In this document: positions 1,032 through 61,191 of the stretch, one piece after another
Numbering within the stretch: the first letter of the stretch is position 1
Layout: the number at the start of each line of letters is the position of its first letter
From: Leptospira sp.
Lineage (GTDB): Bacteria; Spirochaetota; Leptospiria; Leptospirales; Leptospiraceae
NCBI GenBank assembly: GCA_034439575.1
Contig: JAWXAQ010000008.1
Span: 271,359 to 335,358 of the forward strand
Length of the DNA stretch: 64,000 nucleotides
Direction of reading: 5' to 3'
The notes under the pieces: model-generated
Databases searched by the model: none
What the model saw: only the letters and a program-made list of their open reading frames with translations
Told to the model about the DNA's origin: nothing
Translations under genes and position numbers: made by a program

Positions 1032-1067
1032 AAATAATTGAGTTAGCTTATGGAAAGTTAATTCGAA

Positions 1068-1376: not shown

Positions 1377-1380
1377 ATTT

Positions 1381-1956: not shown

Positions 1957-2202
1957 CTATATATATATATAAATTTCAAAGATAATTCCAAATTCAGGAT
2001 TAACCATGAGACTAATTGGAGATGGTAATCTTTGCAAGTTATATACACTTACAGCTATTTTACGGTGGAAGCCGAGTTCTCTCCCGAGTTCATTTTCATT
2101 CAATTCTTTGGCAGATTTAGGAGCCAGAAATTGTAATAATCTGCTAAAATCTTCGTAAGATTGTAAATCCTCGCCAAAATATTTGGATGATGGAGAATAT
2201 AT
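1957..2202 (-). pseudogene. Remnant of an AAA+/DUF4143-family ATP-binding protein gene
   Basis: Start-less open stretch reading EDLQSYEDFSRLLQFLAPKSAKELNENELGRELGFHRKIA...GIIFEIYI*. Resembles the winged-helix region of the intact family member at 8451-9614. Confidence 0.5.
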
Positions 2203-2270
2203 TTATTTTTGGCTCAGAATATTCTCTTCCAAATTTTGACTCTTAAATATAAAGTCAAATATCAGATTTT

Positions 2271-3593: not shown

Positions 3594-3594
3594 T

Positions 3595-4793: not shown

Positions 4794-4844
4794 AATCTCA
4801 TTTTTTTCTAGCCAGGCAAAAGAAAGAAACTAAATTCGAACATT

Positions 4845-5720
4845 ATGAAAAGAAAAGTAGGGCTTTTTTTGGCCTTGGTTTTTATTTCCCTTTCTTGTGA
4901 ACAAATTACCAACTTAACCAAATCTCGTTATCAAAAAAATAATCTAAACAAACCACCGAAAGAATCAGAATTAACGCATTGGGCTGAAAAACTGGCCTTA
5001 GAAGAAGCAGAAATTGAAGAAATGGATCAGAAAATCCGTAAAATGGTCCAAAAGTCAAACCAAGCGGGAGCACTTGCCTGGAAAATCGCGCGAGGCTATA
5101 TGCGTTCTGGTTCGTTTGAAATTAGCTCTCGTTATTACCAAGAGGCGATAGGCGAGGAGATGAAAAAACAAGAATACGAGCTTCATAATTTCGAATCGGC
5201 TCTACCTTATTTTGAAAAAGCTATGGCGAATGGGAAACTCGATAAACAATTGTTATATGAGTCGGCTCTCGCTTTTGCGAATGCATCGAAAGATATGGGA
5301 TGGGAACCGGAACGACGAAAAAAGGCGATTTCACTTTTCAAACAACTTGCGCGACTTGATAATAAAGATACTCGTTTTCCCTTTCAATTGGCTTTGATAT
5401 ATTTTGATTCTTCCTTGAAAGGCGAAGCTTGGGGTGGCAAGGTAAATGCGGGTTATGATGAATTGAACGATGCATTTATTCTCTTGGATCAGATTTTAAA
5501 AATAGAACCTTATAATGTGCCAGCAAGATTTGCTCGGGCAAATTTTTTATATCAGATTGGTAAGGGCAATTCCTCCATCAATGAATACATTCGTATCAAA
5601 GGGATATTGGAAGAGATGAAGGCAAATGGGGCGATCAAAGAATCATTAGAAGAAAATTCATCCTACCAAAATGCAATTAAAAATTTAAATAAGTTACGGA
5701 ACCAAACTACAGAACCTTAA
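4845..5720 (+). CDS. TPR-containing lipoprotein, hypothetical
   Basis: Lipobox FISLSC followed by helical TPR-like repeats. Confidence 0.65.
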   Translation: MKRKVGLFLALVFISLSCEQITNLTKSRYQKNNLNKPPKESELTHWAEKLALEEAEIEEMDQKIRKMVQKSNQAGALAWKIARGYMRSGSFEISSRYYQEAIGEEMKKQEYELHNFESALPYFEKAMANGKLDKQLLYESALAFANASKDMGWEPERRKKAISLFKQLARLDNKDTRFPFQLALIYFDSSLKGEAWGGKVNAGYDELNDAFILLDQILKIEPYNVPARFARANFLYQIGKGNSSINEYIRIKGILEEMKANGAIKESLEENSSYQNAIKNLNKLRNQTTEP

Positions 5721-5729
5721 ACCTTTCTT

Positions 5730-6698
5730 TTGGTGTATCCAAGAGAATATTTTTCTCATCCGAGGATTGCTTCTTTTTGCCATAGAACAAATATTTGGCG
5801 AAATGTGAGCTCTATAAATGAATTAAGTAAACTTTTGATTCAACTCATTGACAGGAAAGAAAAGAAACGATTTGAATCTGAATGTTTGATTTTGAATAAA
5901 AATCCACTTCCAGAAATGGTGGATATTTATTCAGAAGACTATCCCGAACAATTACGTGAAATTTACGATCCACCGCTAGTTCTTAGTTATTTGGGAAATA
6001 TCAAATTATTAAAAAAAAAATTGCTCGGTGTCGTAGGGACAAGAAAAGCATCGAAAATATCCCTTCTTGGAACACGTTTATTAATTCAAAAAATTAAGGA
6101 TTTTGATCCTGATATCGGCATTGTTTCAGGAATGGCGCTGGGAATTGATAGAGAAGCTTTTACGGAAGCTATGAAATTGGATCTGTCTGTGGTTGGCCTA
6201 CTTGGGACAAGTGTGACAGAGGAATACCCTCCTGGGAATCGTGATCTGTACCTGCGGATGAAGGCATCAAATAATGCTTTGTTTCTATCGGAATATATTC
6301 TTCCGACGACGCCTGCTCGTTGGACCTTTCCGAAACGCAATCGTTTGATATCTGGTCTTTCATCTGACATATACATTATGGAATCTGGAAAAAAATCTGG
6401 AACTCTCTCTACTGCAATGAGCGCCCTTTCTCAAAATCGAGATATCCATGTATTCAATCATCCGTTGCAATTGGATAATGAAGGTGGAAAAAGTTTGCTC
6501 CGTGATGGTGCGGAAGAACTTAAGTTTGAATTTATTTCACATAACAAAGGTTTTTTGGAAAAACCAGAATTCTATTCATCTCGAAAAATTTATAATGATG
6601 TAGAGTGGAAAGAGGCGCGGTTTAAAGAAATCCTTTATCAAAGATCGGGAAATAAAACGCCCCTAGGACAGGGCGTTTATTGGGTGGCTACTCCTTAA
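5730..6698 (+). CDS. dprA: DNA-processing protein DprA/Smf
   Basis: YPEQLREIYDPP, VVGTR, IVSGMALGID, FPKRNRLISGLS, SGTLSTA. Confidence 0.92.
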   Translation: MVYPREYFSHPRIASFCHRTNIWRNVSSINELSKLLIQLIDRKEKKRFESECLILNKNPLPEMVDIYSEDYPEQLREIYDPPLVLSYLGNIKLLKKKLLGVVGTRKASKISLLGTRLLIQKIKDFDPDIGIVSGMALGIDREAFTEAMKLDLSVVGLLGTSVTEEYPPGNRDLYLRMKASNNALFLSEYILPTTPARWTFPKRNRLISGLSSDIYIMESGKKSGTLSTAMSALSQNRDIHVFNHPLQLDNEGGKSLLRDGAEELKFEFISHNKGFLEKPEFYSSRKIYNDVEWKEARFKEILYQRSGNKTPLGQGVYWVATP

Positions 6699-7722
6699 AG
6701 AAATAACCAGCGGCTGTAGCGATCACATAAATGACTAATAGTAGAATCCCGATAGGTCTTTTGATTGTATCTTTGGAAAAAAAGATTCCAGCACGAAACA
6801 CGAGTAAAACGAGTATCATCGCAGGAAAATAGAATTGGAAGAAATTTTTTGGAGCAAAAAGTCCTGAGGTAGTGACCGCCGCCGCCGCGCCTGAAACAAA
6901 AAGTACATTTAATATATCAGCACCGATGATATTACCTATGGCAAGTTCGGAGTGTCCTCTTCTGGATGCTTGAACGGCCGTTACAAGCTCAGGAAGAGAT
7001 GTTCCAAAAGCTACGAGTGTTGCCCCAATGATTGAGTCAGGAATATAAAGAATGCGTGCCGTAATTTCTACAGCGGGAATTAAAACTTGGGAAGATAAAA
7101 TGACGATAGCTATCGCGATTACTAATTTAACGATAATGATCGCAAGGGATGAGTTATCAATTTCGGTTGTATCGTCAATGCCTGCCTCTGTATCTCCTGG
7201 TTTTGTTCGTGACCAACGGATACTTAAGTAAATGTACAAACCTAATAAAAATAAAAAGAATATTCCCGTGCCTTGTGTGATCCTTCCGCCATCTTTGAAA
7301 GCGGAACCAAAATCCAACCAAGGTGTTGCGGCAAATACCAAAAGGAAACCAGCACCGACTTGGATCCAACCTTGACGATTCACCAACCTTTTATCAATGC
7401 TAGGTGGTGAAATCAAAATGGCGATACCCAAAATCAATCCCGTATCACAGATGATAGAACCTACAGCGTTTCCGAGGGCAATCCCAGGATTTCCTTCCAA
7501 TGCGGAAATGACAGAAACCGAAACTTCAGGCAAGGTTGTCCCAAGGCTGACAAGTGTCGCACCGATGATCATTTTAGGAACGCCCCATCGCAAAGAAAGG
7601 GAAACTGCTTCGTCCACAAGGACATCAGCGGCTTTGCCCAAACAAAGAATGGACGCAATGATCACAAGGATCAGAAGTGGGAGAGGAAATGCTTGAAAGC
7701 TATTATGTAAAAATTCATCCAT
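6688..7722 (-). CDS. Ca2+/Na+ antiporter (YrbG/CaCA family)
   Basis: Two alpha-repeats, GTTLPE...GNAVGS and GTSLPE...GNIIGA; about 10 TM segments. Confidence 0.92.
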   Translation of the reverse strand: MDEFLHNSFQAFPLPLLILVIIASILCLGKAADVLVDEAVSLSLRWGVPKMIIGATLVSLGTTLPEVSVSVISALEGNPGIALGNAVGSIICDTGLILGIAILISPPSIDKRLVNRQGWIQVGAGFLLVFAATPWLDFGSAFKDGGRITQGTGIFFLFLLGLYIYLSIRWSRTKPGDTEAGIDDTTEIDNSSLAIIIVKLVIAIAIVILSSQVLIPAVEITARILYIPDSIIGATLVAFGTSLPELVTAVQASRRGHSELAIGNIIGADILNVLFVSGAAAAVTTSGLFAPKNFFQFYFPAMILVLLVFRAGIFFSKDTIKRPIGILLLVIYVIATAAGYFFKE

Positions 7723-7738
7723 GGATAAACGCCAATCT

Positions 7739-8362
7739 ATGATCTACCCAATTCATTATCGAGTCTTTCTTATTCTCTTCACTCTTTCTCTACCTACATT
7801 TTTATATGCGGATCCCAAATTGCCAAAGGATCCGACCCTTCCGCAAATGCCTGTAGAAGAAAAAAAAGACGAACGAGACGCTAGAGGTGAGATAAGAGAA
7901 AAACGAACCAATGTGCAAACTCTTACGTTATGTGATGGCAGAACCATTCGCGGGGAAGGGGAAGTTTTAGGAGAAGGTTTTACCCTCGTTCATACCAAAG
8001 ATGGAATCGAATACCGCAAAAAATTGAAATGGGAGGAAATCGAATCCATTAAAATAGATAGCTGGGAATTGAAACAAAAGAAGGAAGAAAAAAAAGGAAT
8101 TTCGTTTGAAGCATTCCCCAAAAAAGTCCGGATCAGAACCAGAAATGGGGAAGTCTTTTACAAGGATACTGGCCTTGCCGATTTAAAATTATTAAATTTA
8201 TCCATCAAAAATAATAACGGAAGTGCAAATGTATTTTCCTATTGGATTGATTTACGTTATACGAACGGATCTTGGTTTTCTGGACTTCCGCAAATGAAAG
8301 GCGAATCCTTAGTACGTGAGGATTGTTTTAAAGATGTAGTGCGAATGATAGAATGGGAATGA
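7739..8362 (+). CDS. Hypothetical secreted protein
   Basis: Signal-peptide-like N-terminus; start is either 7721 or 7739. Confidence 0.6.
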   Translation: MIYPIHYRVFLILFTLSLPTFLYADPKLPKDPTLPQMPVEEKKDERDARGEIREKRTNVQTLTLCDGRTIRGEGEVLGEGFTLVHTKDGIEYRKKLKWEEIESIKIDSWELKQKKEEKKGISFEAFPKKVRIRTRNGEVFYKDTGLADLKLLNLSIKNNNGSANVFSYWIDLRYTNGSWFSGLPQMKGESLVREDCFKDVVRMIEWE

Positions 8363-8450
8363 TGGATATGCGAATTGATTTCAATTTGAGGGTTTTCTCA
8401 TATATAATTTAGCTTGACTATATCCAAAAAAAGGCGGACATTTATTGGGT

Positions 8451-9614
8451 ATGTTCAAGAGGATATTGAAACCGAGTTTGACTAGGAGTTTTTTTCTTTT
8501 TGGTCCTCGATCAACGGGTAAATCAACTCTATTGAATGAGATGCTTCCCGAATCCGCCGCGCTTTGGATTGATTTACTTGATCCTGACACAGAACGCGAA
8601 TTGGCAAAATCACCGTCCCGACTAGCGACTATATTAGAAGGTGAATTGGCTTCAAATCGCAAACGAAAATGGGTTGTCATTGACGAAGTTCAAAAAGTAC
8701 CTGAACTACTAACAGTTGTTCATAAATACATTCAAAAATCAAAATTCTTTTTTGCACTTACTGGTTCCAGCGCTAGAAAATTAAAAAGAAATAATGCTGA
8801 TCTTCTTGGTGGGAGGGCTTCTTGGTTTGAACTGTCTTCACTAAGTCACATTGAACTTGGAAAAAAATTTGATCTAAATCTCGTGTTACAATGGGGTAGT
8901 TTACCCGAAATATTTGAATTATCAGATGAGGACCGTTATAGATTTTTAAAAGCATATGCTAACATCTATCTGAAAGAGGAAATTGTAGCAGAGCAATTGG
9001 TAAGAAAAGTTCAGCCTTTTCGAAACTTCCTTGAGTTAGTCGCTCTGCAGAATGCGCAGATCATTAACTATTCTAAATTCGCGAACGATTGTGGTGTTGA
9101 TATAACAACGATTCAGTCCTACTTTGAGATTTTGATTGATACTCTCATTGGATTCGAGCTACAGCCTTTTCGTTTATCGATTCGAAAGAGACAAAGAACA
9201 AATCCCAAATTTTATTTTTTTGACAATGGTGTAACACGCGCTTTATCCAATTCACTTGAAATCCCAATCCATCCAAAAACCTCTGAATATGGAAAGCAGT
9301 TTGAGCAATATATTATAACTGAAATTATTCGACTCGCAAAAGCGTATGATAAAAATTGGAAGTTTTCCTACCTATCCACTAAGGAAGGAAACGAGATTGA
9401 TTTAATCATTGAGAAGTCTCCCAAAAATATATGTGCGATCGAAATCAAGTCCAACTCAATCGTTGAAGAAATTAAAGTGCGAACTTTTGAGCGTTTAGCA
9501 AGTGATATCCCAAATGTTGAATTATTGTTCATTTCTCAAGATAAAAGTAATCTGAAGATTGGGGATGTGCACTGTCTTTATTGGCGAGATGCAATGTTAA
9601 AGATTTTTGATTAA
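8451..9614 (+). CDS. AAA+ ATPase with DUF4143 / C-terminal PD-(D/E)xK-like domain
   Basis: Walker A GPRSTGKST, Walker B VVIDEVQK, TGSS, LGGRA, KFYFFDNG, EIDLII...AIEIKS. Confidence 0.9.
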   Translation: MFKRILKPSLTRSFFLFGPRSTGKSTLLNEMLPESAALWIDLLDPDTERELAKSPSRLATILEGELASNRKRKWVVIDEVQKVPELLTVVHKYIQKSKFFFALTGSSARKLKRNNADLLGGRASWFELSSLSHIELGKKFDLNLVLQWGSLPEIFELSDEDRYRFLKAYANIYLKEEIVAEQLVRKVQPFRNFLELVALQNAQIINYSKFANDCGVDITTIQSYFEILIDTLIGFELQPFRLSIRKRQRTNPKFYFFDNGVTRALSNSLEIPIHPKTSEYGKQFEQYIITEIIRLAKAYDKNWKFSYLSTKEGNEIDLIIEKSPKNICAIEIKSNSIVEEIKVRTFERLASDIPNVELLFISQDKSNLKIGDVHCLYWRDAMLKIFD

Positions 9615-49430: not shown

Positions 49431-49810
49431 ATATGGATAAATCAGAAAATGTATTTGGAGAAAAATTATTACCCTGCTCTGAAAATCCCTTAACAGGATT
49501 CTTTCGAGATTCTTGTTGCAATACTTCCGATGAAGATTTCGGCTCTCACACCGTTTGCATCGAGGCAAACGAATCATTTTTATTGTCTCAGAAAGAATCT
49601 GGAAATGACCTTATGACACCTAGACCAGAATACAATTTTCTGGGTGTCAAACCAGGGGAGAGATGGTGTTTATGCGCGAGTCGATGGCTTGAGGCGTATC
49701 GAAATGGTGTGGCTCCGAGAGTATTTTTAGAATCCACCCACAAACGCGCGCTAGAGATCATTCCATTGGAGACTCTAGAGCGATTTGCAGCGGAGACAGA
49801 ATCTTACTAA
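49427..49810 (+). CDS. DUF2237 family protein
   Basis: NV.G..L.PCS..P.TGFFRD.CC.T...D.G.HTVC, GNDL.TPRPE..F.G.KPG.RWCLCA.RW. Confidence 0.92.
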   Translation: MNMDKSENVFGEKLLPCSENPLTGFFRDSCCNTSDEDFGSHTVCIEANESFLLSQKESGNDLMTPRPEYNFLGVKPGERWCLCASRWLEAYRNGVAPRVFLESTHKRALEIIPLETLERFAAETESY

Positions 49811-51075
49811 CGAGTATTCAGACCATCTAAATAAGCTCTGGTGAAAATAGAAGTTTTTGTGAGTAACTTCGCAAGAGTATGGTGTATTGGGTGGTCTGGT
49901 TCATATAATTTTTCATATTTTGGTATACCCAAATGTTCCAATTCCATATCCGCTTCGATTGCAGTATCAAATGCTTGTTTGGTGACGAGACTTCTGATCG
50001 AATCATAATCCATTTTGATAGTCTCAGTGGGAAGTGAAGAAGTTTGCAATGCTTTGAAAACTAAGTGGTCTTTCGCATTTGATTTAATCAGATCTTTGAT
50101 TAGATAGTATTGATATTCTTCGATCATGGTATGTCTAGCCGTTACATAATCGACCATTTCTTCTTTCGATTTTGAAAATCCGATTTTTGCAAGTATTTCG
50201 ACTCTTAATAATTTTCCTACACCTATTCTTGGTAATACGGAAGAATGATAAGGCTGAGTTAAGTCTTGTAAATAATGTAAGGCCCAACCTGCAAATCTGT
50301 AACCCCAATATGGATGACCTGTTTTAAATGCAAATTCTGAGAGTTTTGTAAATTGGTAATAACGAAATTCTGGATAGGTTCGTTTTAAAAAACCTGCTAA
50401 GGTAAAAACGATTCCCGATTCATGATAAAATCCCATATGAAATGGTGCTTGTGAAGAATATTCATAGGCAGGATTACCAAACGATTGTTCTCCGAATCCA
50501 TAGATTTTTCCTACCTCCGAATTATTGTCTTCAAACAAATACAAATCAAGATCATAATCTGGTTCGTCGACCGCTGTTACTAAAATCTCAAGTGGTGAGA
50601 CCGAACTGCCTTCTGTCAAAGGGAGAAATGATTCAAGTGGAAGTTTTCCTTTTTCATTTAAAGTTGTGATACTATCCAATATCGGCGATGGTTTTTTCGC
50701 AATGGTTTGTACGGCTTGGGTGTAGAGGAATGCTTTATGGTTTGGGTTGACACGAAGCGCTCGATAGAAAGTCAACTCGGCATTTTTTTTATCAATGGAT
50801 GTGGGATCAAAGATAAGTTCTGCTTTTGGTTTTTGAAAGTGAGGTAATTTAGTTTCGATAAAAGTATCTATTTCACTTAAGACTATGGGAAGTTTGTCTT
50901 TTTCTTTTGCGATAAAACTAGATAATGATTCGGCTTTGACTTTAGTCGGGGAATTTGTCTTCCAATAATCTTTTAATATTATGTAAGTTAAACCAGCGTG
51001 GTTGTTCCAACCATTGATTGGAGCTATAAGTAATAAGGAGATACTAATCAGAAATATTGATTTAAGTGTTTTCAT
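49807..51075 (-). CDS. Secreted zinc-dependent phospholipase C/P1 nuclease-fold protein
   Basis: Mature N-terminal W..H, DEPD, FH, LHYLQDLTQPYH, H...E. Confidence 0.75.
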   Translation of the reverse strand: MKTLKSIFLISISLLLIAPINGWNNHAGLTYIILKDYWKTNSPTKVKAESLSSFIAKEKDKLPIVLSEIDTFIETKLPHFQKPKAELIFDPTSIDKKNAELTFYRALRVNPNHKAFLYTQAVQTIAKKPSPILDSITTLNEKGKLPLESFLPLTEGSSVSPLEILVTAVDEPDYDLDLYLFEDNNSEVGKIYGFGEQSFGNPAYEYSSQAPFHMGFYHESGIVFTLAGFLKRTYPEFRYYQFTKLSEFAFKTGHPYWGYRFAGWALHYLQDLTQPYHSSVLPRIGVGKLLRVEILAKIGFSKSKEEMVDYVTARHTMIEEYQYYLIKDLIKSNAKDHLVFKALQTSSLPTETIKMDYDSIRSLVTKQAFDTAIEADMELEHLGIPKYEKLYEPDHPIHHTLAKLLTKTSIFTRAYLDGLNTR

Positions 51076-51905
51076 TTTTTGTCCATGAATGTTTTTCCAT
51101 TCCATTTGCGTTTGTAAACTGAGTATTCATTGATTGAGGTATCTTCCACATCATAAGTACGAGTAATCTCTATCACGGTGTTGGGTTCTCCGACATACTT
51201 TTTTCTTTTAATTTCTTTATCTTCCGCAAGAGTATCGTTTGGAAAAAGTAGCCAAGTATCTCCGCAAGAAGGGGGATCACAACCGCCAGGATGCCATGAA
51301 TAAAAATTGGCAATTTTACCATCCTCTGTTAGGCTAAGAATCGTTTCCTCCGAATAACCATATTCGATTTCAGAAAATACCAAATACTTAAATCCGATCA
51401 ATGTACCTGGACTTGGTGTGAACGGTTTACTATCGTAAATTTTGAATTCCCAATTTTCATTGGAAACGGGACCATCTGCTATGTTCAGTTTGGAAATAAT
51501 TTTATTTTCTTTAATAACTTTGATTTCCAGTTTTCTCGCATTCACACCAGGGTTTCGAACAAGTATAGTATGTCCCTTAACCGCAGTATACCCATCAGCA
51601 AGCAAAGATCCCCATACATATCCTTGTTTGTCATTGAACTGGATCAAATACCAAAATTCTTTTGTTTTGCCCTGAGTTAAAAGTTCGTTTGTCTTTTTAA
51701 CAATAGTGACTTCATCACCAGGTTGTAATTTAGTTATGACTTCTGATTTAGTATCTGTGCTTTTGCGAACATTTACATTTTCACCAAACACAAAATAATT
51801 TTGTCCCTCCGTTTTTTCAGGAATTACATCGTCCCAATGGCCTTCGGAAAAAATTACAGAGTTCCCAATGAAGAACTGTATAAGGATTAAAACTATCCAT
51901 TTCAT
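51072..51905 (-). CDS. Secreted SH3b-domain protein
   Basis: Signal peptide; NVNVRK...S.VI.KL..G..V...WY.I....QGYVWG.LL. Confidence 0.8.
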   Translation of the reverse strand: MKWIVLILIQFFIGNSVIFSEGHWDDVIPEKTEGQNYFVFGENVNVRKSTDTKSEVITKLQPGDEVTIVKKTNELLTQGKTKEFWYLIQFNDKQGYVWGSLLADGYTAVKGHTILVRNPGVNARKLEIKVIKENKIISKLNIADGPVSNENWEFKIYDSKPFTPSPGTLIGFKYLVFSEIEYGYSEETILSLTEDGKIANFYSWHPGGCDPPSCGDTWLLFPNDTLAEDKEIKRKKYVGEPNTVIEITRTYDVEDTSINEYSVYKRKWNGKTFMDKK

Positions 51906-52033: not shown

Positions 52034-53227
52034 ATGGCATTTGTATATAAAGAATTAAAAGCGTTTTCCCCAAAAGATAATTTGCGTGTCGATGAGACGT
52101 TTAAACTAGAAGGTGCCGTAACTAAAACAGATGACACTCTCGCCGAATTAGAAAGTGCATCACATGATCCGAAAATGGCACCAGGAACTGGTTTTCTTAA
52201 TTTTAGAACCAAGGCACATATCACAGCGGGTCTAGTTCCTATCAAATCACCTGACGGCTCCGATTTTTTACTCGTGGTGAATCATAAAGGGGAAATGATA
52301 TTACTCCAATTATTGGAGGATAAAGTGTCCGCAGTTTGGAATATCACAATTCCAGGAACTATTTATAGGACACCTGTAATCATAGGAGATAATGCTTTTA
52401 TTGTCACCAAGCAAGGGTTAATTGCTGCGGTATCGATTAAATTTGATGAGAAAGGGAAAGCTATTCCTGGGACCATCATTTGGCAACGTAATATCGGTTT
52501 AACGGTATTTTCGAAACTTATCACTACAGGACGTATAGTCATTGTTGCCACTATCAATGGCATTCATGCTTACGATTGTTATTTTTCAGGCGAAGGTGAA
52601 ACGGGAACTTTTGGCAAACGAGTATGGGAACATCGATTGGAAGGAATTGTTTCTTCGCCATCCATAGATGGAAGTATATTGTTTATCGGAAGTGAAGACA
52701 AACACCTGTATGCTTTGCGTTACGGTGGAGAAGGGGCAAGCACACTTTGGTCTTATAAAACGGAAGGTCCAGTTAGAAGCAAACCTTGTGTTTCTCAAAA
52801 AGGTAATTTTGTGTTAGTTGGCTCTCTTGATGGATTTGTATATTGTTTTGATAGAGTCAATGGAACTATGGTTTGGTCCTTTCCTGCAAGAAGTGCCGTT
52901 CATTCTGATATCGTTTCTTATGTTTTAGGTAATGATGAATTTTTTCTATTTGGTAATGATGATGGTACATTCTTTTGCCTCAATGTGTATGGAAAACAAC
53001 AATGGACCTTTAAGACTAATGGTCGCATTCGTAGTGAAGCTTTAGTAGAAGGGGATGTTGTTTACTTTGGTTCGGAAGACAATCATCTTTATGGATTAAA
53101 AATTGTGACAGGTCAACTGTATTTGAAATACAATACAGATGGCAATTTGAACGGCAAGCCAGCGATATGCGGTAATCGACTTTATATTGGTTCAACAGAT
53201 TCGTTTGTGCATGGTATATATATTTAA
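52034..53227 (+). CDS. PQQ-type (BamB-like) beta-propeller repeat protein, no signal peptide
   Basis: About 7-8 repeats of W....G.V.S.P......(F/Y).GS.D..(L/V)Y.(L/F). Confidence 0.88.
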   Translation: MAFVYKELKAFSPKDNLRVDETFKLEGAVTKTDDTLAELESASHDPKMAPGTGFLNFRTKAHITAGLVPIKSPDGSDFLLVVNHKGEMILLQLLEDKVSAVWNITIPGTIYRTPVIIGDNAFIVTKQGLIAAVSIKFDEKGKAIPGTIIWQRNIGLTVFSKLITTGRIVIVATINGIHAYDCYFSGEGETGTFGKRVWEHRLEGIVSSPSIDGSILFIGSEDKHLYALRYGGEGASTLWSYKTEGPVRSKPCVSQKGNFVLVGSLDGFVYCFDRVNGTMVWSFPARSAVHSDIVSYVLGNDEFFLFGNDDGTFFCLNVYGKQQWTFKTNGRIRSEALVEGDVVYFGSEDNHLYGLKIVTGQLYLKYNTDGNLNGKPAICGNRLYIGSTDSFVHGIYI

Positions 53228-54147
53228 TGGAGTCATTTATGTTTTTTGCCCAATTAGTAAACCCGTATTCAATAGAACAGATCAAAGCTCTAGAAGATAA
53301 AGTAAACTCATATGAGACATGGGTATTTTTTATGGTTTTTGTTTCGGCAGGATTGGCTTTAGCCGTCATCTTGCAAAGGTTAGCTATCAATAAACTGAGA
53401 GCCAAAGACCCAACAGACATAAAATATTATCACAAAAATATCAAACCCAAAGAAGAAAAAGAAAAATCTCCAAGTAAAGATGAAACCAATCTTCCTGATG
53501 TGAATACGATTACACAAACGACTCCTACTCATATAAATGACAATCTTCCAAAATCAAAAGATTTACCAGACCCAGGATTGATTTTTAAATATGTGATCTC
53601 CGGTGAACCCGCAGAAAAAATCATTACCATCGGTCAAAGAGAAGGAACTATCAAAACCTATTCTACTGAAATCATCGATCATCATTTAACGATAATGATA
53701 CGAGCTTTAGATGCATCCAGAGGACAAGATATCTATAACCTTCCCGATCGCATCATGGAAACCTATGTCCTTGACTTTCGTCGTGAAGGAAAGGCTCTTA
53801 TCGTACTTCCAAATTCTAAAGAAGTAAAAGAAATGGGTTCACGTGAGAGAATTTATATTCAAGAAGCGGCAGATGAAGCGGGCGATGCAAATTACCCTAC
53901 TTTAGAACAAAACCAACCGATACGCTTTCGGTTAGGTGATAGATTGAGCCAAGAAGGAAAATTTAGGGCTGGTTATTTTGAATTTCATTTGTATACGAAA
54001 GATGTAGAGACAAAAACAAAAGCAGGGATTGTAAAAATTGAAAAACAATTTTTCTTGCGTTTGTTTAAGATATATCCTGGTTATGACACCGCAAAACAAA
54101 CCGCTGATGGTCTTTTCCCAATGATTGATCCATTCGCAAAGGCTTAA
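53227..54147 (+). CDS. Single-pass membrane protein with low-complexity linker and beta-rich C-terminal domain (possibly degenerate FHA-like)
   Basis: TM at about aa 31-50, K/E/P/T-rich linker, IITIGQ...IIDHHLTI; TAATG overlap with the upstream gene. Confidence 0.7.
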   Translation: MESFMFFAQLVNPYSIEQIKALEDKVNSYETWVFFMVFVSAGLALAVILQRLAINKLRAKDPTDIKYYHKNIKPKEEKEKSPSKDETNLPDVNTITQTTPTHINDNLPKSKDLPDPGLIFKYVISGEPAEKIITIGQREGTIKTYSTEIIDHHLTIMIRALDASRGQDIYNLPDRIMETYVLDFRREGKALIVLPNSKEVKEMGSRERIYIQEAADEAGDANYPTLEQNQPIRFRLGDRLSQEGKFRAGYFEFHLYTKDVETKTKAGIVKIEKQFFLRLFKIYPGYDTAKQTADGLFPMIDPFAKA

Positions 54148-54154
54148 TTTTAAT

Positions 54155-57100
54155 ATGGCAAATATTCAAACATCAATCCAAAGAGTACTGTCTGGCGATA
54201 AACCAGCTGTTCGTAAATCACTCATCATCGGTGTGGGTGGATCTGGAATGAAAGGTGTACTTTCCGTAAAAAAATGGATGGAATCTAGTTTGCCAAATGA
54301 AGCATTTAGATACCTGAGATACATTGGTATAGATACAACTGATATTGAAACAAGCATTGAAGCAAAAGGCGCAAAATATAGATTTCCTTCCAATCAATTC
54401 TTTCAAGAAGAAAGTCGGATGTTGTACATTCCTGCTCCTACGCCAGCAGAACTATCGTTAGATTTTTTACGTGATAAATACAAAAACGATCCAGCCTTCA
54501 AATGGTTACCCAATCCAGATGTTTACGATATTTCCACGAGAGCCGGGCAAGGAGCCAATCAAACTAGACCACTTGGTAGGTTAGCATTTTTTTATAATGA
54601 AAGTATCATTCGTGAAACATTAATTAAAGAAAGAGATCGTTTAGCTAGTTTTTCTACGAATCCAAAATATTTCCAATTACTCGATGTCAAAGAGGAAGAT
54701 CGTAAAGAAGAAGAGATCAGTTTTGAGATCAAAAAAGGTGTTGGTAAGTATTATTTTAAAGATAAAATCGCTCCTGGTCGTCAGTTTATTTCTCTTGATC
54801 CAGATTCTACCGCTAGAGCGATTCTTGCCCCGCAATCTGACAAACCTTTAACGATCGATTCGTTTCCGTTAGATGAGAATGGATATTATTTCCAAGTTAA
54901 CCCTGCCCATTTTGTGGGACAAACTTTTAAGTTTAAAACTTCGCATATGCGTAGTTCGGCGCAAATTTCTATATTTATTACCTGTTCGATTGTAGGTGGT
55001 ACTGGCAATGGTATGATATTGGATTTAGCGGCTATGGTGAAAGACATCTTTAAAGATTTTTGGCCAACGCCAAGAATTTATGGAATTCTTATCCTACCCG
55101 CTGCGTTTCAAAAAGTTGTGTATAACCGAAACGCTCGTGGGAATGCTTATGCTGCTCTAAAGGAAATCGATTATTTTATGAGCGGCAATTCCTTTAAGGC
55201 TACGTATCCGGGCGGGAGAGAAGTCATTGTCAATGATCAGATATTTGATAATGGTATGCTTTACCTTTTAGATATAGAGAATATGGCTTCCAATTCTTTG
55301 CAAGGAAGAGACCAAGTCCAAGAATTAACAGGACAATTTATTTCAACCTTTGTCGCATCCACGGTGGGAGGAGCCATCGAAGAACGAATGGTAAACGATT
55401 CGACGCGAGTTTCTGTTTATTTACCTAAGGATGAAACATCAAAACGTAAGGCTTGTTATAATTCCTTTGGAATTTCACGCGTAGTTTATCCTGTCGATAA
55501 AATGGCGCAACTGGGTTATAAAATAACCGCAGTTAAGCTAATCGAAAATTTCGTCAAAGATATCACTCCAAAATTGTTACTTGAAACAATTGGCGATCTT
55601 AATCGTGGACTTGTTCGTGCAATTCGTTTGAATTGTCTTTCTTTCTTTGAAAGATTACATCCTGATTATGAATTGGATATGGGAGTTGAGTTTAAATCAT
55701 ACAAAACTAGGCTTGATGGCTTGCTCGAAAAAAAAGATGCCAGAGGAGCAGTTGCTCTTTTAGAAATGCTCGGGCGTGATTATGGTCCCGAAGAGCAAGA
55801 AAAGATAAAAAATAATTTCTTATCTCGAATCAGTAAACGATCAGGGCTCGAAAATGAAAAACTAAAAAACATCATCACTGGTGAGATACATAAATATATC
55901 AATGATCCTATGCGCGGATTTTTATTCGCTGAGTCTGTAATCACTCTGATATTGGATAAATTAGAGCTTTATCAAAAAAAATACTATAACGAGAAAGTCG
56001 CATTATCACGTTATTCGGTAGAAGATTTTTCAAAATGTATAGAAGCCTGTGAAAAACAAGGGCTTGCGAATCCTGAAATTTTTCAACAATTTATAACCAT
56101 GCAAGATTTTAACTATCGTCAGTTAGTTTATGAATCTATGTTAACTGCGGCGGAAAATTTTGTTCGAGATTTGAAAGCATCTCTATTTGAAATTAAAAAT
56201 AATGAAATTGTAATATTAAAAGAAAAATTATTTGAATTAAAAAAGAATTTAGAAACAGAAATTCAAGATGGTAAATTCGAAATTCTAGAAAAGAAAAATC
56301 CACTCTTTTTCTATCTAATAAATCCTGATGAAATTGATTTGTTTTTAAAGAAATACTTCTATGCAAGACTGTCTATCGAAGACCTTTCCAATGAAATTAA
56401 TTTTCTCAAAATGGACAGAGAGGATGATGCGGTCCAGATACTCACCACTCATTTAATCGCAACTCGCGGTCTTAAGATTCTTGAAAAAAAACAAGATGAG
56501 ATTATGGATATTCTTAAATCCACTTATTCACATCTTTTAGGGAAAAATGCTGCAGAAGTGAAAGAAGCACTGGCATCTGAAGCACAAGACGATGAAGACA
56601 AACTGGAAGTTTCTGATGCCACACAAACAAAAATTGAGATTGAAAATATTCGATCAAAACTTTTCCAAATCATCTATTCAAAGTTACAAGGGTTTAATTT
56701 TGAGTCAATCTCCATTAAACAAGTATTAGAAGAGAAAAAAATTACTTTGAAAAAACTTCTAGAAAAACTGGATGTTTATTCTAGGCCGTACATTAAAATA
56801 GATTCGAATGGCACGGATGCTATGGAGTATTATCGGACAGTTACAAATTTTCCGCTAAATACATATGAGGAAGGGGATAAAGTAGAAGATTCACAAGCGA
56901 ATGATTTGCCTACTAGAATGGATCATTATACAAAAAGATCCAATGCCAGTCCTGATATAAGTGTAGAAACTTTTGAAGCACCTACTGTGTGTAAGCCGTA
57001 TGAAATGATATCGATTGGTATATTACTCGGATATCCCATTTTTAAAATCAGTAGCCTTTCTTCTTCTGTAAATGATTATCATGCGTTAATGGCGGAAAGA

Positions 57101-57976
57101 AGTCATCCTCTTCATTGTTTTAACCATCCTTTAGAAGACGCCAAATATTTTCCCGATCCAATGAGAACATTGAATTATCTAAATCCGGCAAGATTATGGA
57201 ATGGGCTTGTCGCATATGGGATTTTGGTGCCAGGTGACAACGGTTATGCGTATGAAGACAATCTATCTCTGAAATTAAAAGAGATGCAGGCTAAGGAAAA
57301 TTATAAAGGGAATATTCTCGAAATTGAAAAACTCATTCTAGCCGAAGGCGGGTATGAAAAGATTTCCCCTAAAACTTTTGTCCAAGCTATTCACACTTTC
57401 GCCATGCTTTCCAAATCAAAATCTGGAAAAATCTGTTTTAGAAAGGATGTCGCCAATGTTATTGCTGATATTCTGGATGGTGAAGAAACGGATGCGAAAG
57501 CGAAAGAGATGGGGATGAATCGAGATGAATATTTAACCACGCATCTCGCTAAACCAGAGTTTGATGGCATGGAGGATTTAAGCAAATTTCTCTTCAAAGG
57601 TGATGTTAAGGTAAAAACTTTTCTTATTAATGAAATTCAGAATATCATCAAACGCACCAAAGGAAATGAAGAAGCAGGCGCTGCTATCTCTTTACCTAAA
57701 TCAAAAATTCAATCTGTGACACTTCCCACATTTAAAGATCAATATAAATTTTATGAGTATTTTGAAAAATTTGGTTCACTCGAATGGCAAAATATTCTAA
57801 AGAACGAAATTGTAAGTAAATTGGCCGCAAAACTTTCTTCATACGAATTCCGAATGGATTACGATCCTACGTTACTTGATCGATCAAAAATCCAAGCATT
57901 CCTTGAAAAAGAAAAAGTAAATTTACCAGAAGTAACTGTTTGGGAAACAGCAATCGAAAATAAAATCATTAAGTAA
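54155..57976 (+). CDS. Large divergent tubulin/FtsZ-like protein (Tubulin_2 / FtsZl1-type)
   Basis: LIIGVGGSG, IGIDT, GAN..R..GRLAF, SIVGGTGNG..LD, NAYAALKE.D, SFG...V.YP; long helical C-terminal region. Confidence 0.88.
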   Translation: MANIQTSIQRVLSGDKPAVRKSLIIGVGGSGMKGVLSVKKWMESSLPNEAFRYLRYIGIDTTDIETSIEAKGAKYRFPSNQFFQEESRMLYIPAPTPAELSLDFLRDKYKNDPAFKWLPNPDVYDISTRAGQGANQTRPLGRLAFFYNESIIRETLIKERDRLASFSTNPKYFQLLDVKEEDRKEEEISFEIKKGVGKYYFKDKIAPGRQFISLDPDSTARAILAPQSDKPLTIDSFPLDENGYYFQVNPAHFVGQTFKFKTSHMRSSAQISIFITCSIVGGTGNGMILDLAAMVKDIFKDFWPTPRIYGILILPAAFQKVVYNRNARGNAYAALKEIDYFMSGNSFKATYPGGREVIVNDQIFDNGMLYLLDIENMASNSLQGRDQVQELTGQFISTFVASTVGGAIEERMVNDSTRVSVYLPKDETSKRKACYNSFGISRVVYPVDKMAQLGYKITAVKLIENFVKDITPKLLLETIGDLNRGLVRAIRLNCLSFFERLHPDYELDMGVEFKSYKTRLDGLLEKKDARGAVALLEMLGRDYGPEEQEKIKNNFLSRISKRSGLENEKLKNIITGEIHKYINDPMRGFLFAESVITLILDKLELYQKKYYNEKVALSRYSVEDFSKCIEACEKQGLANPEIFQQFITMQDFNYRQLVYESMLTAAENFVRDLKASLFEIKNNEIVILKEKLFELKKNLETEIQDGKFEILEKKNPLFFYLINPDEIDLFLKKYFYARLSIEDLSNEINFLKMDREDDAVQILTTHLIATRGLKILEKKQDEIMDILKSTYSHLLGKNAAEVKEALASEAQDDEDKLEVSDATQTKIEIENIRSKLFQIIYSKLQGFNFESISIKQVLEEKKITLKKLLEKLDVYSRPYIKIDSNGTDAMEYYRTVTNFPLNTYEEGDKVEDSQANDLPTRMDHYTKRSNASPDISVETFEAPTVCKPYEMISIGILLGYPIFKISSLSSSVNDYHALMAERSHPLHCFNHPLEDAKYFPDPMRTLNYLNPARLWNGLVAYGILVPGDNGYAYEDNLSLKLKEMQAKENYKGNILEIEKLILAEGGYEKISPKTFVQAIHTFAMLSKSKSGKICFRKDVANVIADILDGEETDAKAKEMGMNRDEYLTTHLAKPEFDGMEDLSKFLFKGDVKVKTFLINEIQNIIKRTKGNEEAGAAISLPKSKIQSVTLPTFKDQYKFYEYFEKFGSLEWQNILKNEIVSKLAAKLSSYEFRMDYDPTLLDRSKIQAFLEKEKVNLPEVTVWETAIENKIIK

Positions 57977-58058: not shown

Positions 58059-58334
58059 ATGAATAGATACTTTCTTTTAACGATTTTTTCACTTGTGTGG
58101 TCTTTTTCGATTGGTTCGGAAACAGTAGATCAGAAGTGTGCGGAAGTTTGCCGTAACAAAGGATATCAATACCATTACTGCGAAAATAAGTGCCAAGGCA
58201 ATAAATCGCAAATCGAAAAAGATAGAGACACAAGTCATGCACCTCTTGAGAATGAAATGGATATAAAATGTATGAATGTCTGTATAAAAGAAAAAAATTC
58301 GTATAACAAATGTGAAGCTAAATGTCGATTCTAA
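58059..58334 (+). CDS. Small secreted Cys-rich protein with two Cx3Cx9Cx3C repeats
   Basis: Signal peptide; CAEVCRNKGYQYHYCENKC and CMNVCIKEKNSYNKCEAKC. Confidence 0.75.
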   Translation: MNRYFLLTIFSLVWSFSIGSETVDQKCAEVCRNKGYQYHYCENKCQGNKSQIEKDRDTSHAPLENEMDIKCMNVCIKEKNSYNKCEAKCRF

Positions 58335-58786
58335 AAAATTATAATCTAAGAGTTATTGCAGGTTTAATTCTTTTTTCAATGAATTACCTATCAGCTAAAG
58401 ATATCACCACATATCACAAAAATAATTTTGGAGAAGTATCTTATAATAAATATGGCCTCGCTTCGATAGTGACCGAAGATGGTTGGGTCGTAATCGATAA
58501 AAAGAAAAAGGTCTTACATAAAGTATTTATGTTTGATAATGGCCCTGATTATGTAAGCGATGGAATGTATAGAATCATCGAAAATGGAAAAATGGGTTTT
58601 GCCAACGAAAAAGGAAAAGTTGTGATTCCGCCTAAATACGATTTCGTTTGGCCTTTCGAAAAAGGGTCAGCTAAATTTTGTAATGGTTGTACATTTAAGA
58701 AAGAAGGTGAACACACAAGAATTGTTGAAGACAATGCTGTCACAGGTTTTATCAATCGAGCTGGAAAAGAAATTTCAAAAAAATAA
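58322..58786 (+). CDS. WG (KWG) repeat protein
   Basis: FDNGPD...G..RI..NGKMGFANEKG.VVIPPKYDF..PF..G.A, GFINRAG. Confidence 0.85.
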   Translation: MSILKNYNLRVIAGLILFSMNYLSAKDITTYHKNNFGEVSYNKYGLASIVTEDGWVVIDKKKKVLHKVFMFDNGPDYVSDGMYRIIENGKMGFANEKGKVVIPPKYDFVWPFEKGSAKFCNGCTFKKEGEHTRIVEDNAVTGFINRAGKEISKK

Positions 58787-58814: not shown

Positions 58815-59486
58815 ATGAAATTATTTAAAAATATCATAATATACCAAAAATGGAATGTAGTATTATTTTCTATTCTAATGTTCACTTTTTCTATCCAAGC
58901 GATAGGCGATTATGAGCCAGGAGAAAAACTTTTCACCCTTAGTGAGAAAGGTTTAAATCTTAGAGATAAACCAAATGCAAATGGTAAAAAAGTGACATTG
59001 ATTCCATTTGCATCCGAACTTACCATCATATCAAAAAACAAAGCTAATCAATATTCCTCGGACGGTATTACTGGACATTGGGTAGAAGTGAAATATAAAA
59101 AATTCACTGGTTTTGTATTTGATGGATATTTAACTCATAAAATACCACCGGCTCTTTCTTGTAAAAATTTTAAAGAATTTCTTAGAAAGAGTATCGGAGA
59201 AGGAAAAGCAGAAACAATTGCGGCGGGTGATTACGAAGGCCAATCTGCGATACGATTTGGAAAAAATATATTATATATGACAGAAGGCGGAGATACCTTT
59301 TCTATTTATTTTCCTGGAATTTCTATGGAAGAACTTTTTCTAATCGGAAGGATTTGTAAAGAGATCTCAGCAAAAACATTGTTATTGGATGCAAATGGAT
59401 CTTTTGGAGAAATATTTAACAATAATTTTACCAATCAATTGTATAAAGATGAGAATGGTGTTACCATGTTTCGACGAAGTATTTGA
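58815..59486 (+). CDS. Secreted SH3b-domain protein
   Basis: GLNLR.KP...G.....IP....L...G.WV.V.Y....GFVFDGYL. Confidence 0.82.
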   Translation: MKLFKNIIIYQKWNVVLFSILMFTFSIQAIGDYEPGEKLFTLSEKGLNLRDKPNANGKKVTLIPFASELTIISKNKANQYSSDGITGHWVEVKYKKFTGFVFDGYLTHKIPPALSCKNFKEFLRKSIGEGKAETIAAGDYEGQSAIRFGKNILYMTEGGDTFSIYFPGISMEELFLIGRICKEISAKTLLLDANGSFGEIFNNNFTNQLYKDENGVTMFRRSI

Positions 59487-59529: not shown

Positions 59530-61191
59530 TCATTCTTTAACAAATTCTACAATTTCACCTTCTTTCAAAGGGCGATCATTTAATATCATTGTTTGATTTT
59601 TCCATTTTCTTTGTGCTTTGAATAAAAATGGTAAACTAACCCAGTTTTCATCGTTTAAACAAAAATGTAAATGTGACTCTCGCGACATACCGCTGTTACC
59701 TGACCTACCAATGACATCACCTCTTTTTATTTTCGCACCAATTGAGAAGGGAATTGAGTATTGTTTTGTATGTGCATAAAAGGAAGAATATCCTTTATGT
59801 TGGATCGTAATATAATTTCCATTATAGGCAATTTGTCCAGGCTCATTATCAGGTTCTGTATTTAAGAGATCAATCACTTCTCCGTCATCGATTGCAAGTA
59901 AGGATTGATCAAAATTTAAATAATCTAAATTTGATTTTCCCGAAGTATTTTCTTTTATGAATTCTCCCTTTTCATTCACTGCCATAAAATCATAACAATA
60001 TTTTGCTAACCCGTTGTGTGTCATCGCTGTTCCACCAAATTCAGATAATACGAAATATTTTCCTTGTAACGGATGAGAAATTTGTGTTAAAGATTTCCGG
60101 TTTGGAAATTCTTTTTCATAAAGTTCTATCGCCTTACGGCGTAATTTGATCGCCCTCTCGCGGTCCTCTTTCGTAACGAAATTTTCTTTTTTTGATTTAA
60201 TTGTATAATAAGAAAATCCAAAATTGTCATACGCATCTGGATCATTTGGAAAAAGTTGGATCAATTTCTGATATGTATCTTCATGATATTTGACATCTGA
60301 TATATGGTTTATCCCTTTAACGATAATATTCTGATAATAATATTGGTTTCGGAAATTCTTTTTTTTATCCAATAATGATATGGTCTTACTGATTTCTGAT
60401 TTGATATTATTGAATGGTGGGAGTTCAGTAATCAACATTTCTTTAAATCTAAGAAATCTAGTATATGGATAAGTTTCCATGATGAATTTATTCTCAGGAA
60501 ATTTAATTTGCCCTTTTTCCAATAACTCCAAAGCAAGTGTATATTTTTTTTGTTCACGGTATGCTACAGCCAATTGATATAAGATAAAATCTTTTTCTAG
60601 TATTGAATAAGCGGAACTCAAATATTTTTCGGCTTCAATGAATTGTTTTCGATTTAAAAATTCCATTCCATATTCAAAATAACAATAGGCTAAATTGTTT
60701 TGGATTTGATCATTCGTCGGAAATTTACTTTTTCCTTCTTCTAATACTTCGATAGATTTTTGAAAATACTTGTTTTGTTTTAGCACTGTACCATACCAAA
60801 TCGTACTTACTTCTGATTGAGTGAGTTCATATGATTCTTTGCAAAGTTCTAAAGCTTGCACCAGAGTCTCTTGTGTTGATAATAATTTACTGCATTGAAT
60901 GCTTAATGATAAAGATAATGATTCCTTTATTGGTTTAGAGTTTGGGAATATGGATAATGCTTTTCTACCAAAATCGATGGCTTCTGTGTCCTTGGATTGA
61001 GAATTAAACACGTACAACAAAGATGAATATAACCATTCAGTATTTGGACTATCTTTAATTGCTTTTTTTAATTCCAGTTCTGCTTTGATCCATTCTTTTT
61101 GATTCAATAATTTTTCAATGTTAGTTCCATCATAAGAATATAATTGATTACAGATCAGAAATAGGTAAAAAATAAATTTAATCTTTTTCAT
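59530..61191 (-). CDS. TPR-repeat protein with C-terminal M23 peptidase domain
   Basis: Signal peptide, multiple TPRs, H...YCYDF, GN.I.I.H....S.YAH, G..IG.SGNSG.S..SHLHF. Confidence 0.88.
   Translation of the reverse strand: MKKIKFIFYLFLICNQLYSYDGTNIEKLLNQKEWIKAELELKKAIKDSPNTEWLYSSLLYVFNSQSKDTEAIDFGRKALSIFPNSKPIKESLSLSLSIQCSKLLSTQETLVQALELCKESYELTQSEVSTIWYGTVLKQNKYFQKSIEVLEEGKSKFPTNDQIQNNLAYCYFEYGMEFLNRKQFIEAEKYLSSAYSILEKDFILYQLAVAYREQKKYTLALELLEKGQIKFPENKFIMETYPYTRFLRFKEMLITELPPFNNIKSEISKTISLLDKKKNFRNQYYYQNIIVKGINHISDVKYHEDTYQKLIQLFPNDPDAYDNFGFSYYTIKSKKENFVTKEDRERAIKLRRKAIELYEKEFPNRKSLTQISHPLQGKYFVLSEFGGTAMTHNGLAKYCYDFMAVNEKGEFIKENTSGKSNLDYLNFDQSLLAIDDGEVIDLLNTEPDNEPGQIAYNGNYITIQHKGYSSFYAHTKQYSIPFSIGAKIKRGDVIGRSGNSGMSRESHLHFCLNDENWVSLPFLFKAQRKWKNQTMILNDRPLKEGEIVEFVKE

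Follow-up and report, generated by a model that had tools for sequence, protein, structure and literature searches.

A conserved three-gene locus of Leptospira and related spirochaetes encoding a divergent tubulin-like (FtsZl1) protein, a predicted FHA-fold membrane protein and a peptide-plus-propeller protein

The 64,000-nucleotide stretch of Leptospira sp. DNA analysed here, called the window below (assembly GCA_034439575.1, contig JAWXAQ010000008.1, positions 271,359 to 335,358 of the forward strand), carries three consecutive genes at positions 52034 to 57976, referred to as the trio. Gene 1 encodes a protein with a conserved N-terminal peptide and a beta-propeller, gene 2 a membrane protein with a domain predicted to adopt the forkhead-associated (FHA) fold, and gene 3 a tubulin-like protein of the FtsZl1 family, which corresponds to the Pfam family Tubulin_2. 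The genes and the regions of their products are as follows.

52034-53227, + strand: gene 1, open reading frame (ORF) of 397 aa
52034-52108, + strand: conserved N-terminal peptide of gene 1 (residues 1-25), found in 45/45 first genes with an intact 5' end
52208-53224, + strand: beta-propeller region of gene 1 (about residues 59-397), from the Pfam stretches and the alignment
53227-54147, + strand: gene 2, the middle, membrane gene, ORF of 306 aa
53311-53391, + strand: predicted single transmembrane (TM) helix of gene 2 (residues 29-55), KD19 maximum 2.40, inside model helix 16-60
53392-53562, + strand: Lys/Glu/Pro-rich linker of gene 2, predicted to be disordered (about residues 56-112), with a predicted local distance difference test score (pLDDT) of 49-55 and no secondary structure, variable in the alignment
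53563-54081, + strand: predicted all-beta FHA-fold domain of gene 2 (residues 113-285), model pLDDT mostly >90, fold from VIA-align
54155-57976, + strand: gene 3, the tubulin-like gene, ORF of 1273 aa counted from MANIQ
54203-55573, + strand: tubulin/FtsZ-fold domain of gene 3 (residues 17-473), from Foldseek, VIA-align and hhalign
54641-54958, + strand: subfamily-specific beta-rich insert of gene 3 (about residues 163-268), skipped in the hhalign alignment to a classical FtsZl1
54992-55012, + strand: T4 signature VGGTGNG of gene 3 (residues 280-286), invariant in 33 orthologs
55574-56626, + strand: middle region of gene 3 (residues 474-824), with many helix formers and little Gly or Pro
56627-57973, + strand: conserved C-terminal domain of gene 3 (residues 825-1273), with many invariant motifs and a fold without assignment

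The stop codon of gene 1 and the start codon of gene 2 overlap in the sequence TAATG (53225-53229), and the stop codon of gene 2 (54145-54147) is followed by 7 bases and then by the ATG of gene 3 at 54155. An earlier note made from the letters of this DNA (the original prediction) had described three tightly coupled genes with this overlap and a 7-bp gap, and its coordinates and junctions are exact. A TTG at 54125 offers an alternative upstream start for gene 3, which would lengthen the product by 10 residues to 1283 aa; we prefer 54155, because the orthologs align from its M1, which is invariant. A scan for hydrophobic segments finds one in the gene 2 product and none in those of genes 1 and 3. 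Judged by their conservation, the three are real genes and not chance ORFs, because full-length orthologs with 48-86% identity exist at 51 other loci. Promoter-like sites number 22, below the shuffle mean of 26.8, and the 7 terminator-like sites (4.2 ± 2.2 in shuffles) include no convincing one.

Gene 3 belongs to the FtsZl1/Tubulin_2 family (Pfam ID PF13809, E-value 1.2e-45, 156.8 bits, cut-off 27), with a further match to Pfam Tubulin (PF00091) at an E-value of 1.3e-4 and 22.8 bits, under the cut-off of 33. It is the one Tubulin_2 gene in a scan of the whole source genome, and public records already name its product a "tubulin-like domain-containing protein". A sequence search of the PDB gives nothing significant. 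Judged by what marks a canonical FtsZ (PF00091 above cut-off, FtsZ_C, the T7 loop), gene 3 is not one, reaching 22.8 bits for PF00091 and aligning over T4-T5 only, and the canonical ftsA-ftsZ pair lies on another contig of the source genome. The original prediction had found the protein notable for being "giant", which does not hold: the Tubulin_2 proteins of the nearest ESM Atlas clusters have 1083-1109 aa, the founding FtsZl1 member has 1051 aa (Makarova and Koonin 2010, PMC2875224, here and below from part of that text), and about 1270 aa is an ordinary size for the family.

The N-terminal domain was modelled with AlphaFold2 over residues 1-520 from 30 orthologs, giving a mean pLDDT of 68.8, mostly above 80 between residues ~20 and ~400 and low past ~405. 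The listed Foldseek matches of this model are all CetZ, TubZ, FtsZ and tubulins, the best with an E-value of 8.4e-4 and most with a probability of 1.0. With VIA-align, rows 1-17 all belong to the tubulin/FtsZ superfamily (Z 16.2-11.5), and the rows after this group are Rossmann-type reductases at Z <=8.8. The top match is CetZ2, with a Z of 16.2 and a root-mean-square deviation (rmsd) of 3.1 A over 212 aa, and the match to CetZ and TubZ covers nearly the whole chains (model residues 20-445 against chain residues 1-327). The best structural matches of the domain are therefore CetZ, TubZ and FtsZ (Z 16.2-14.9), from which gene 3 differs in sharing 10-22% identity, in being three to four times longer and in carrying an insert. 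The tubulin fold on which the original prediction depended is thus supported, Foldseek returning this superfamily only. At the profile level, an hhalign comparison of 33 orthologs with a classical 1050-aa spirochaete FtsZl1 aligns residues 24-473 with a probability of 98.4% and an E-value of 1e-14.

The nucleotide-binding loops are strongly conserved. The T1/T3/T4-type loops GVGGSGMKG, GQGANQTRPLGR and VGGTGNG are invariant at nearly every residue in the 33 orthologs, as are IIGVGGSG, GANQTRPLGR and NAYAALKE, and VGGTGNG aligns with GGGTGTG of the FtsZ of the same genome. The tubulin/FtsZ GTP-binding motifs that had been read by eye in a protein of ~1270 aa were thus all recovered, VGGTGNG at 54992-55012 included. 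The T6, H7 and T7 elements are needed for FtsZ-type filament contacts and for catalysis. Two invariant acidic patches at residues ~380-390 and ~405-418 are candidates for T6/H7/T7, picked by eye only.

Within the GTPase domain lies an insert of ~100 residues, modelled at a pLDDT of 82-90. The Pfam Tubulin_2 match to gene 3 falls into two stretches, 1-148 and 156-345, because the beta-rich insert interrupts the domain. The insert is left unaligned in the comparison with a classical FtsZl1, and the C-terminal ~800 residues of gene 3 have no detectable similarity to that member, hhalign finding none past residue 473. Residues 601-900 have an EKRQLA fraction of 0.46-0.52 and a G+P fraction of 0.02-0.05, and the model places helices from residue 447 on with low confidence. 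The C-terminal ~450 residues carry many invariant polar and aromatic motifs, and Pfam recognises no catalytic domain there. A search with residues 825-1273, in which the 7997 candidates sharing most words were scored, returned 70 proteins, all of the ~1270-aa type, the shorter ones coming from short contigs; the named carriers are all Leptospira or spirochaete assemblies. Gene 3 is conserved over all 1273 residues at about 49% identity between families.

The gene 2 product has no family match in Pfam, NCBIfam or PADLOC, and its structure was predicted from 58 homologs with a mean pLDDT of 85. All 58 of these homologs have one TM segment (residues 29-55 in gene 2), in agreement with the single-pass membrane protein of the original prediction. 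Lysine and arginine are richer on the C-terminal flank of the segment in 51 of the 58, a bias that by the positive-inside rule places the C-terminal domain in the cytoplasm. The TM helix would thus be joined through the linker to a globular all-beta domain, which a conserved tail follows to residue 306. The top Foldseek match of the model is an FHA domain, a weak hit (E-value 0.04, probability 0.97). VIA-align, which is independent of Foldseek, returns FHA domains in nearly all of 50 rows, with Z 9.4-6.4 and an rmsd of about 2-2.7 A, the best being the CT664 FHA domain (Z 9.4, rmsd 1.9 A over 85 of 101 residues), and the matches cover most of each target domain, an 11-stranded beta-sandwich. 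Among these matches are YscD (4a0e), EssC (5fwh) and FhaA (3oun), membrane proteins that like gene 2 bear a cytoplasmic FHA-fold domain (Z 6.7-8.3); gene 2 differs from them in lacking a sequence-level FHA signature. By its predicted fold, the gene 2 domain is therefore an FHA-fold domain without the FHA sequence signature. In FHA domains, phosphothreonine is bound by residues of the Gly-Arg, Ser-x-x-His and Asn-Gly motifs, and the usual Gly-Arg position reads, by eye, Gly-Gln in gene 2 (G136-Q137).

Gene 2 belongs to a narrow family: among 1.84 billion representatives, a profile search yields 32 relatives, 23 of them with an E-value <=1e-10, and no fusion to a tubulin-like protein is among these 32 matches. 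All are <=367 aa save two of 695 and 960 aa, which match the profile only in its variable linker/TM part. The ESM Atlas search with the FHA domain gave no usable match, and hhalign of gene 2 with three vWA partners of classical FtsZl1 operons aligned TM segments or nothing (probability 0.2-2.7%).

Gene 1 matches the Pfam families Beta-prop_ACSF4 (PF13570; 7.3e-41, 141.1 bits, cut-off 133) and PQQ_2 (PF13360; 2.2e-19, 70.5 bits, cut-off 27.6). It is not BamB itself, scoring 77.4 bits vs an equivalog cut-off of 285.2 and having no signal sequence. The product is predicted to be cytoplasmic, with an N-terminal peptide, an acidic linker and a PQQ/BamB-like beta-propeller; the reading of a signal-less PQQ-type propeller in the original prediction agrees with the Pfam matches and with the lack of an N-terminal hydrophobic segment. 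Each of the 45 first genes whose 5' end is intact carries the peptide, 36 of them being of the propeller type and 9 of a short acidic type. In an alignment of 44 rows, F11 and L17 are invariant (44/44) and P13 is conserved at >=90%, and the propeller part is only 31-41% identical in the majority of the distant rows. Both forms continue after the peptide with an acidic stretch. In a sister clade of ~49% identity, the propeller gene is gone and a short ORF in its place has the same peptide and a short acidic tail. We rejected the propeller as the defining part of gene 1, as nine loci keep the peptide without it. Because the peptide is present in all intact first genes and the propeller only in some, the constant feature of gene 1, as far as the alignments tell, is the N-terminal peptide and not the propeller, and the peptide looks like a candidate short linear docking motif.

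In the propeller-less clade (L015, L016, L018 and L019), a gene of ~590-630 aa and one of ~300 aa precede the short first gene; these two upstream families match acyl-CoA dehydrogenase and patatin-like phospholipase in L090 and L088 and recur in 5-6 of 51 loci.

Conservation of the trio was surveyed in one genome per GTDB species with scan patterns specific to this subfamily, which gave 51 near full-length loci with 48-86% identity. Their labels are Leptospira, Leptospirales, Leptonemataceae or otherwise spirochaete, apart from one Caldithrix and a few named only "bacterium" or "metagenome". Gene 2 lies directly upstream of the tubulin-like gene at every one of the 51 loci. The propeller gene is present at 40 (cut or broken at 4), the short form at 9, and 2 loci end before the position; eight of the short genes come from the ORF survey and the ninth (L101) was added on inspection, so that all nine propeller-less loci with upstream sequence have a short peptide-bearing gene. 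Wherever all three genes are present, gene 2 stands between the other two (40/40), and genes 2 and 3 overlap or are separated by <=30 nt at 38 of the 51 loci, by ORF calls from the first start codon, which may misplace starts. The co-conservation implied by the original prediction therefore holds without exception for gene 2 with the tubulin-like gene (51/51) and for the propeller in 40 of 51.

Clustering of the flanking ORFs at the 51 loci shows no other family at more than 10 of them, and vWA, GTPase and kinase genes do not recur. The commonest flanks are GGDEF, a small OmpA-type gene on the opposite strand (9/51), LigA, a methyl-accepting chemotaxis protein and AsnS, followed by response regulator-SpoIIE, patatin and acyl-CoA dehydrogenase genes. 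In the window itself, no vWA, Ser/Thr kinase, Hsp70 or extra GTPase gene is found in the neighbourhood of the cassette. The absence of adjacent vWA, GTPase and kinase partners, noticed in the original prediction at this one locus, thus extends to the homologous loci. The trio is a conserved self-contained module and a distinct variant; the idea that it is a decayed copy of a larger operon, which the original prediction had named as a way to be wrong, fails because the homologous loci are without vWA, GTPase or kinase genes.

Three metagenome-assembled loci have a split or shortened trio gene, which may be an assembly error: in L075 gene 2 is affected, in L091 the N-terminus of the tubulin-like gene, and in L097 the propeller gene together with the tubulin-like one. 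The 8.4-kb contig labelled Caldithrix sp. (L087) has a first-gene N-terminus nearly identical to that of L100, labelled Turneriella parva and with the same isolate-name prefix, and its label is probably a binning error.

In a sample of the phylum, Tubulin_2 is found in 16 of 301 genomes, counting both types of the family, and 10 of the 16 are of the split-match type of the window. Among the split-match carriers are genomes from five or more additional GTDB families, four of them placed in another class, and the seven split-match loci fetched from other GTDB families all have the three genes in order. The continuous-match type (929-1051 aa) adjoins vWA genes (L150, L151) and Hsp70-like or MotA/ExbB-like genes (L150, L153) in spirochaetes. 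Among five such classical comparison loci, Pfam detects vWA at two, and a homolog of the propeller or of gene 2 is found at none. The classical vWA-type context of FtsZl1 thus exists in spirochaetes too, apart from the trio variant.

At L150, positions 216-9554 encode on one strand a 493-aa vWA protein, a small TM protein, the 1050-aa Tubulin_2 protein, a 273-aa protein whose N-terminus matches Tubulin_2 weakly (E-value 0.0078), a 560-aa protein without assignment, and an Hsp70-like protein. L153 and L154 have two Tubulin_2 genes per contig, and between those of L153 lie genes for an Hsp70-like protein of 1084 aa and for a MotA/ExbB-like membrane protein.

The trio is of the FtsZl1 operon kind and not a new category. 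Such operons were predicted by Makarova and Koonin (2010, PMC2875224), whose partners, in the part of that text at hand, include lineage-specific membrane proteins. The trio has in common with them the gene 3 family and the presence of a canonical FtsZ in the same genome. It differs in that the typical vWA, Ser/Thr kinase, extra GTPase and OmpA partners are not in its operon (none recurrent at 51 loci), the partners instead being the bitopic protein with a predicted FHA fold and the peptide-plus-propeller protein. The background given in the original prediction, that FtsZl1 proteins are uncharacterised, occur in neighbourhoods with vWA domains, GTPases and kinases, and have been linked to membrane remodelling or to conflict, agrees with what PMC2875224 and PMC7159879 state in the parts at hand. 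Our literature search found no paper on the trio or on the Leptospira tubulin-like protein, and no experimental study of FtsZl1/Tubulin_2 proteins; the partner-family lists of PMC2875224 (A1-A2, B1-B9) lay outside the search and might include genes 1 or 2.

From these observations we propose that the trio products form a membrane-tethered tubulin-like assembly built around the divergent FtsZl1 protein, a reading that we regard as evenly poised between right and wrong. The three products would act together at the cytoplasmic face of the inner membrane, with the gene 2 protein and its predicted FHA fold as the membrane receptor or anchor and the tubulin-like protein as the element that assembles in a GTP-dependent manner. 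The peptide of gene 1 may be a docking motif by which the propeller is linked to the product of gene 2 or gene 3, and the propeller may be a platform for protein interactions. The role would most likely be membrane-associated organisation or remodelling, as has been proposed for FtsZl1 generally. A role in cell division is unlikely, because the canonical ftsA-ftsZ genes lie elsewhere in the genome.

An analogy of layout is offered by ZipA, the membrane tether of FtsZ, in which a charged, flexible linker joins an N-terminal TM helix to a globular domain at the C-terminal, cytoplasmic end. Gene 2 appears to share this layout and is likewise encoded beside a tubulin-superfamily protein; the likeness is one of layout only, the globular domain of gene 2 being predicted as an FHA fold instead and giving no ZipA Pfam match. 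Complex prediction was run twice with residues 825-1273 of gene 3 and 1-60 of gene 1 as chains and the FHA domain (108-306) as the scored partner; both runs gave a score of 0.00, which counts neither way.

In a stronger form of the proposal, the trio would be an autonomous, vWA-independent membrane cytoskeleton of free-living spirochaetes, in which a phospho-independent FHA-fold anchor, serving genus-wide as a general docking platform, recruits a polymerising tubulin-like protein and the 25-residue peptide acts as a universal coupler. We consider this stronger form rather doubtful; if true, it would give the first partner-binding code and a minimal working set for the whole FtsZl1 family.

Several findings weigh against a membrane-tethered assembly of the three products. 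At the level of gene 3, the profile comparison with the FtsZ of the same genome aligned T4-T5 only (probability 17%) and left T6-H7-T7 unmapped. For gene 2, the Pfam FHA model (PF00498) matches none of the 58 members at E-values <=10, and hhalign with a genuine FHA domain of the same genome gives a probability of 0.2%. The distribution within the genus is patchy (6 of 41), which indicates an accessory function and would fit a conflict role too. Other points concern gene 2 apart from its partners. Gene 2 is found in 24 of 24 genomes of the genus and, with the protein query, the tubulin-like gene in 3 of 24; by the Pfam model, the tubulin-like gene is found in 5 of 40. At eight of eight tubulin-less loci inspected (L050-L057), gene 2 stands alone at the same syntenic site, intact, at about positions 8000-8880 of each locus and adjoining the same SH3-domain, 432-aa and DUF2237 genes; in L050, it is followed downstream by a convergent gene of 439 aa, thiolase-like by eye only. 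The ratio of nonsynonymous to synonymous substitution rates (dN/dS) of lone gene 2 is 0.11-0.24 in the six pairs with the lowest dS out of 11 (dS <2.5), and that of the flanking 432-aa gene is 0.04-0.07; carrier pairs are saturated and give no estimate. Because lone gene 2 is kept under purifying selection, it therefore appears to have a function that needs neither partner. The membrane-tethered adaptor of the original prediction stands as far as the membrane protein goes, and a mere adaptor it is not, since it stands alone in most of the genus.

A comparison of 12 genomes, which are related and not independent, adds a second side to this. With the partners present, gene 2 is 73.6% identical vs 58.1% for the flanking 432-aa protein, and with the partners absent, the values are 56.8% vs 69.9%, kinship being ignored. 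These figures fit a gene 2 that has a function of its own and is constrained further where it has genes 1 and 3 beside it.

Among the alternatives, two have a similarly small probability in our view. The first holds that the trio is a stripped-down anti-phage or anti-invader conflict system of the GTPase-centric kind with tubulin, Hsp70 and vWA, the tubulin-like protein acting by threshold assembly and the propeller as the sensor of the invader. Such systems, in which tubulin homologs occur with TRAFAC GTPases, Hsp70 and vWA, are described in the portion of Kaur, Burroughs, Iyer and Aravind (2020, PMC7159879) at hand, and resemble the trio in having a tubulin-superfamily protein with a C-terminal extension, helical in those systems and rich in helix formers in gene 3, and membrane-associated partners; the vWA and Hsp70-like genes at the classical spirochaete loci L150, L151 and L153 and the patchy distribution of the gene, in the genus as in the phylum sample, are also in keeping with this view. 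Against it, the TRAFAC GTPases, Hsp70, vWA and effector domains of those systems are not found at the trio loci, neither in the window nor as recurrent genes at the 51 loci, and PADLOC-DB 2.0 gives no match at an E-value <=0.001 (genes 2 and 3 none at all, gene 1 one at 0.065). The flanks are housekeeping or signalling genes and the cassette has a fixed chromosomal site within the genus. Phage records and viral contigs hold no relatives, and plasmids gave just three distant megaplasmid Tubulin_2 genes with 26-27% identity over 16% of the query. The 1273 residues of gene 3, moreover, are all conserved between families, unlike fast-diversifying defence genes. Because there is no effector or defence component, the flanks are ordinary, phage and viral relatives are lacking and the whole of gene 3 is conserved, we think a structural or membrane role more likely than one in defence.

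The second alternative, improbable to about the same degree, is that the tubulin-like protein does not polymerise and is a GTP-regulated switch or scaffold, the large C-terminal domain carrying the real activity. This would account for the T6-H7-T7 elements, which are not identifiable in gene 3 and, according to the part of Makarova and Koonin (2010, PMC2875224) at hand, likewise across the FtsZl1 family; it would also give a place to the subfamily-restricted C-terminal ~450 residues with their invariant polar and aromatic motifs and to the ~100-residue insert within the GTPase domain. On the other hand, the structural match takes in the C-terminal half of the tubulin fold, the loops that bind the nucleotide are invariant at nearly every residue, and the C-terminal part contains no catalytic domain recognisable by Pfam.

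Least probable of the three is that gene 2 is an independent resident membrane gene beside which only genes 1 and 3 form a system, adjacency coming from history or expression convenience: gene 2 is indeed alone in 21 of 24 genomes of the genus, with the same site and purifying selection at the tubulin-less loci inspected, genes 1 and 3 being gained or lost together at that site, but its unfailing place upstream of the tubulin-like gene and between its partners is kept in at least seven GTDB families with unrelated flanks, start/stop overlaps or few-base gaps are common, and its conservation is far higher in the presence of the partners.

FtsZl1/Tubulin_2 proteins are widespread, and their usual operons are large and variable and hard to dissect. 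The spirochaete subfamily has a fixed minimal set of three genes, which provides a tractable entry to FtsZl1 biology and offers a candidate docking peptide and a membrane partner of a recognisable predicted fold. Natural controls are at hand in the relatives that keep only gene 2 and in the clade without the propeller but with the peptide. Some carriers are saprophytic Leptospira relatives, which makes the role of the tubulin-like proteins directly testable.

The cassette is bracketed on both sides by genes for predicted exported proteins with bacterial SH3_3 domains, at 51072-51905 (- strand) and 58815-59486 (+ strand). Upstream, the gene at 49807-51105 (- strand) encodes a protein of 432 aa that has a hydrophobic segment at its N-terminus and matches no Pfam family; the protein is 53-62% identical across the genus, and the 3' end of its gene overlaps the start of the SH3 gene (51072-51105). 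Downstream of the cassette follow a 91-aa Cys-rich protein (58059-58334, + strand) and a WG-repeat protein (58322-58786, + strand). Conservation across the genus holds for the SH3 gene and the genes upstream of it, and not for the set downstream of the cassette. Encoded 1.5 kb downstream of the cassette, at 59530-61191 (- strand), is a protein with TPR repeats and a Peptidase_M23 domain at its C-terminus (2.8e-13), likely a cell-wall endopeptidase.

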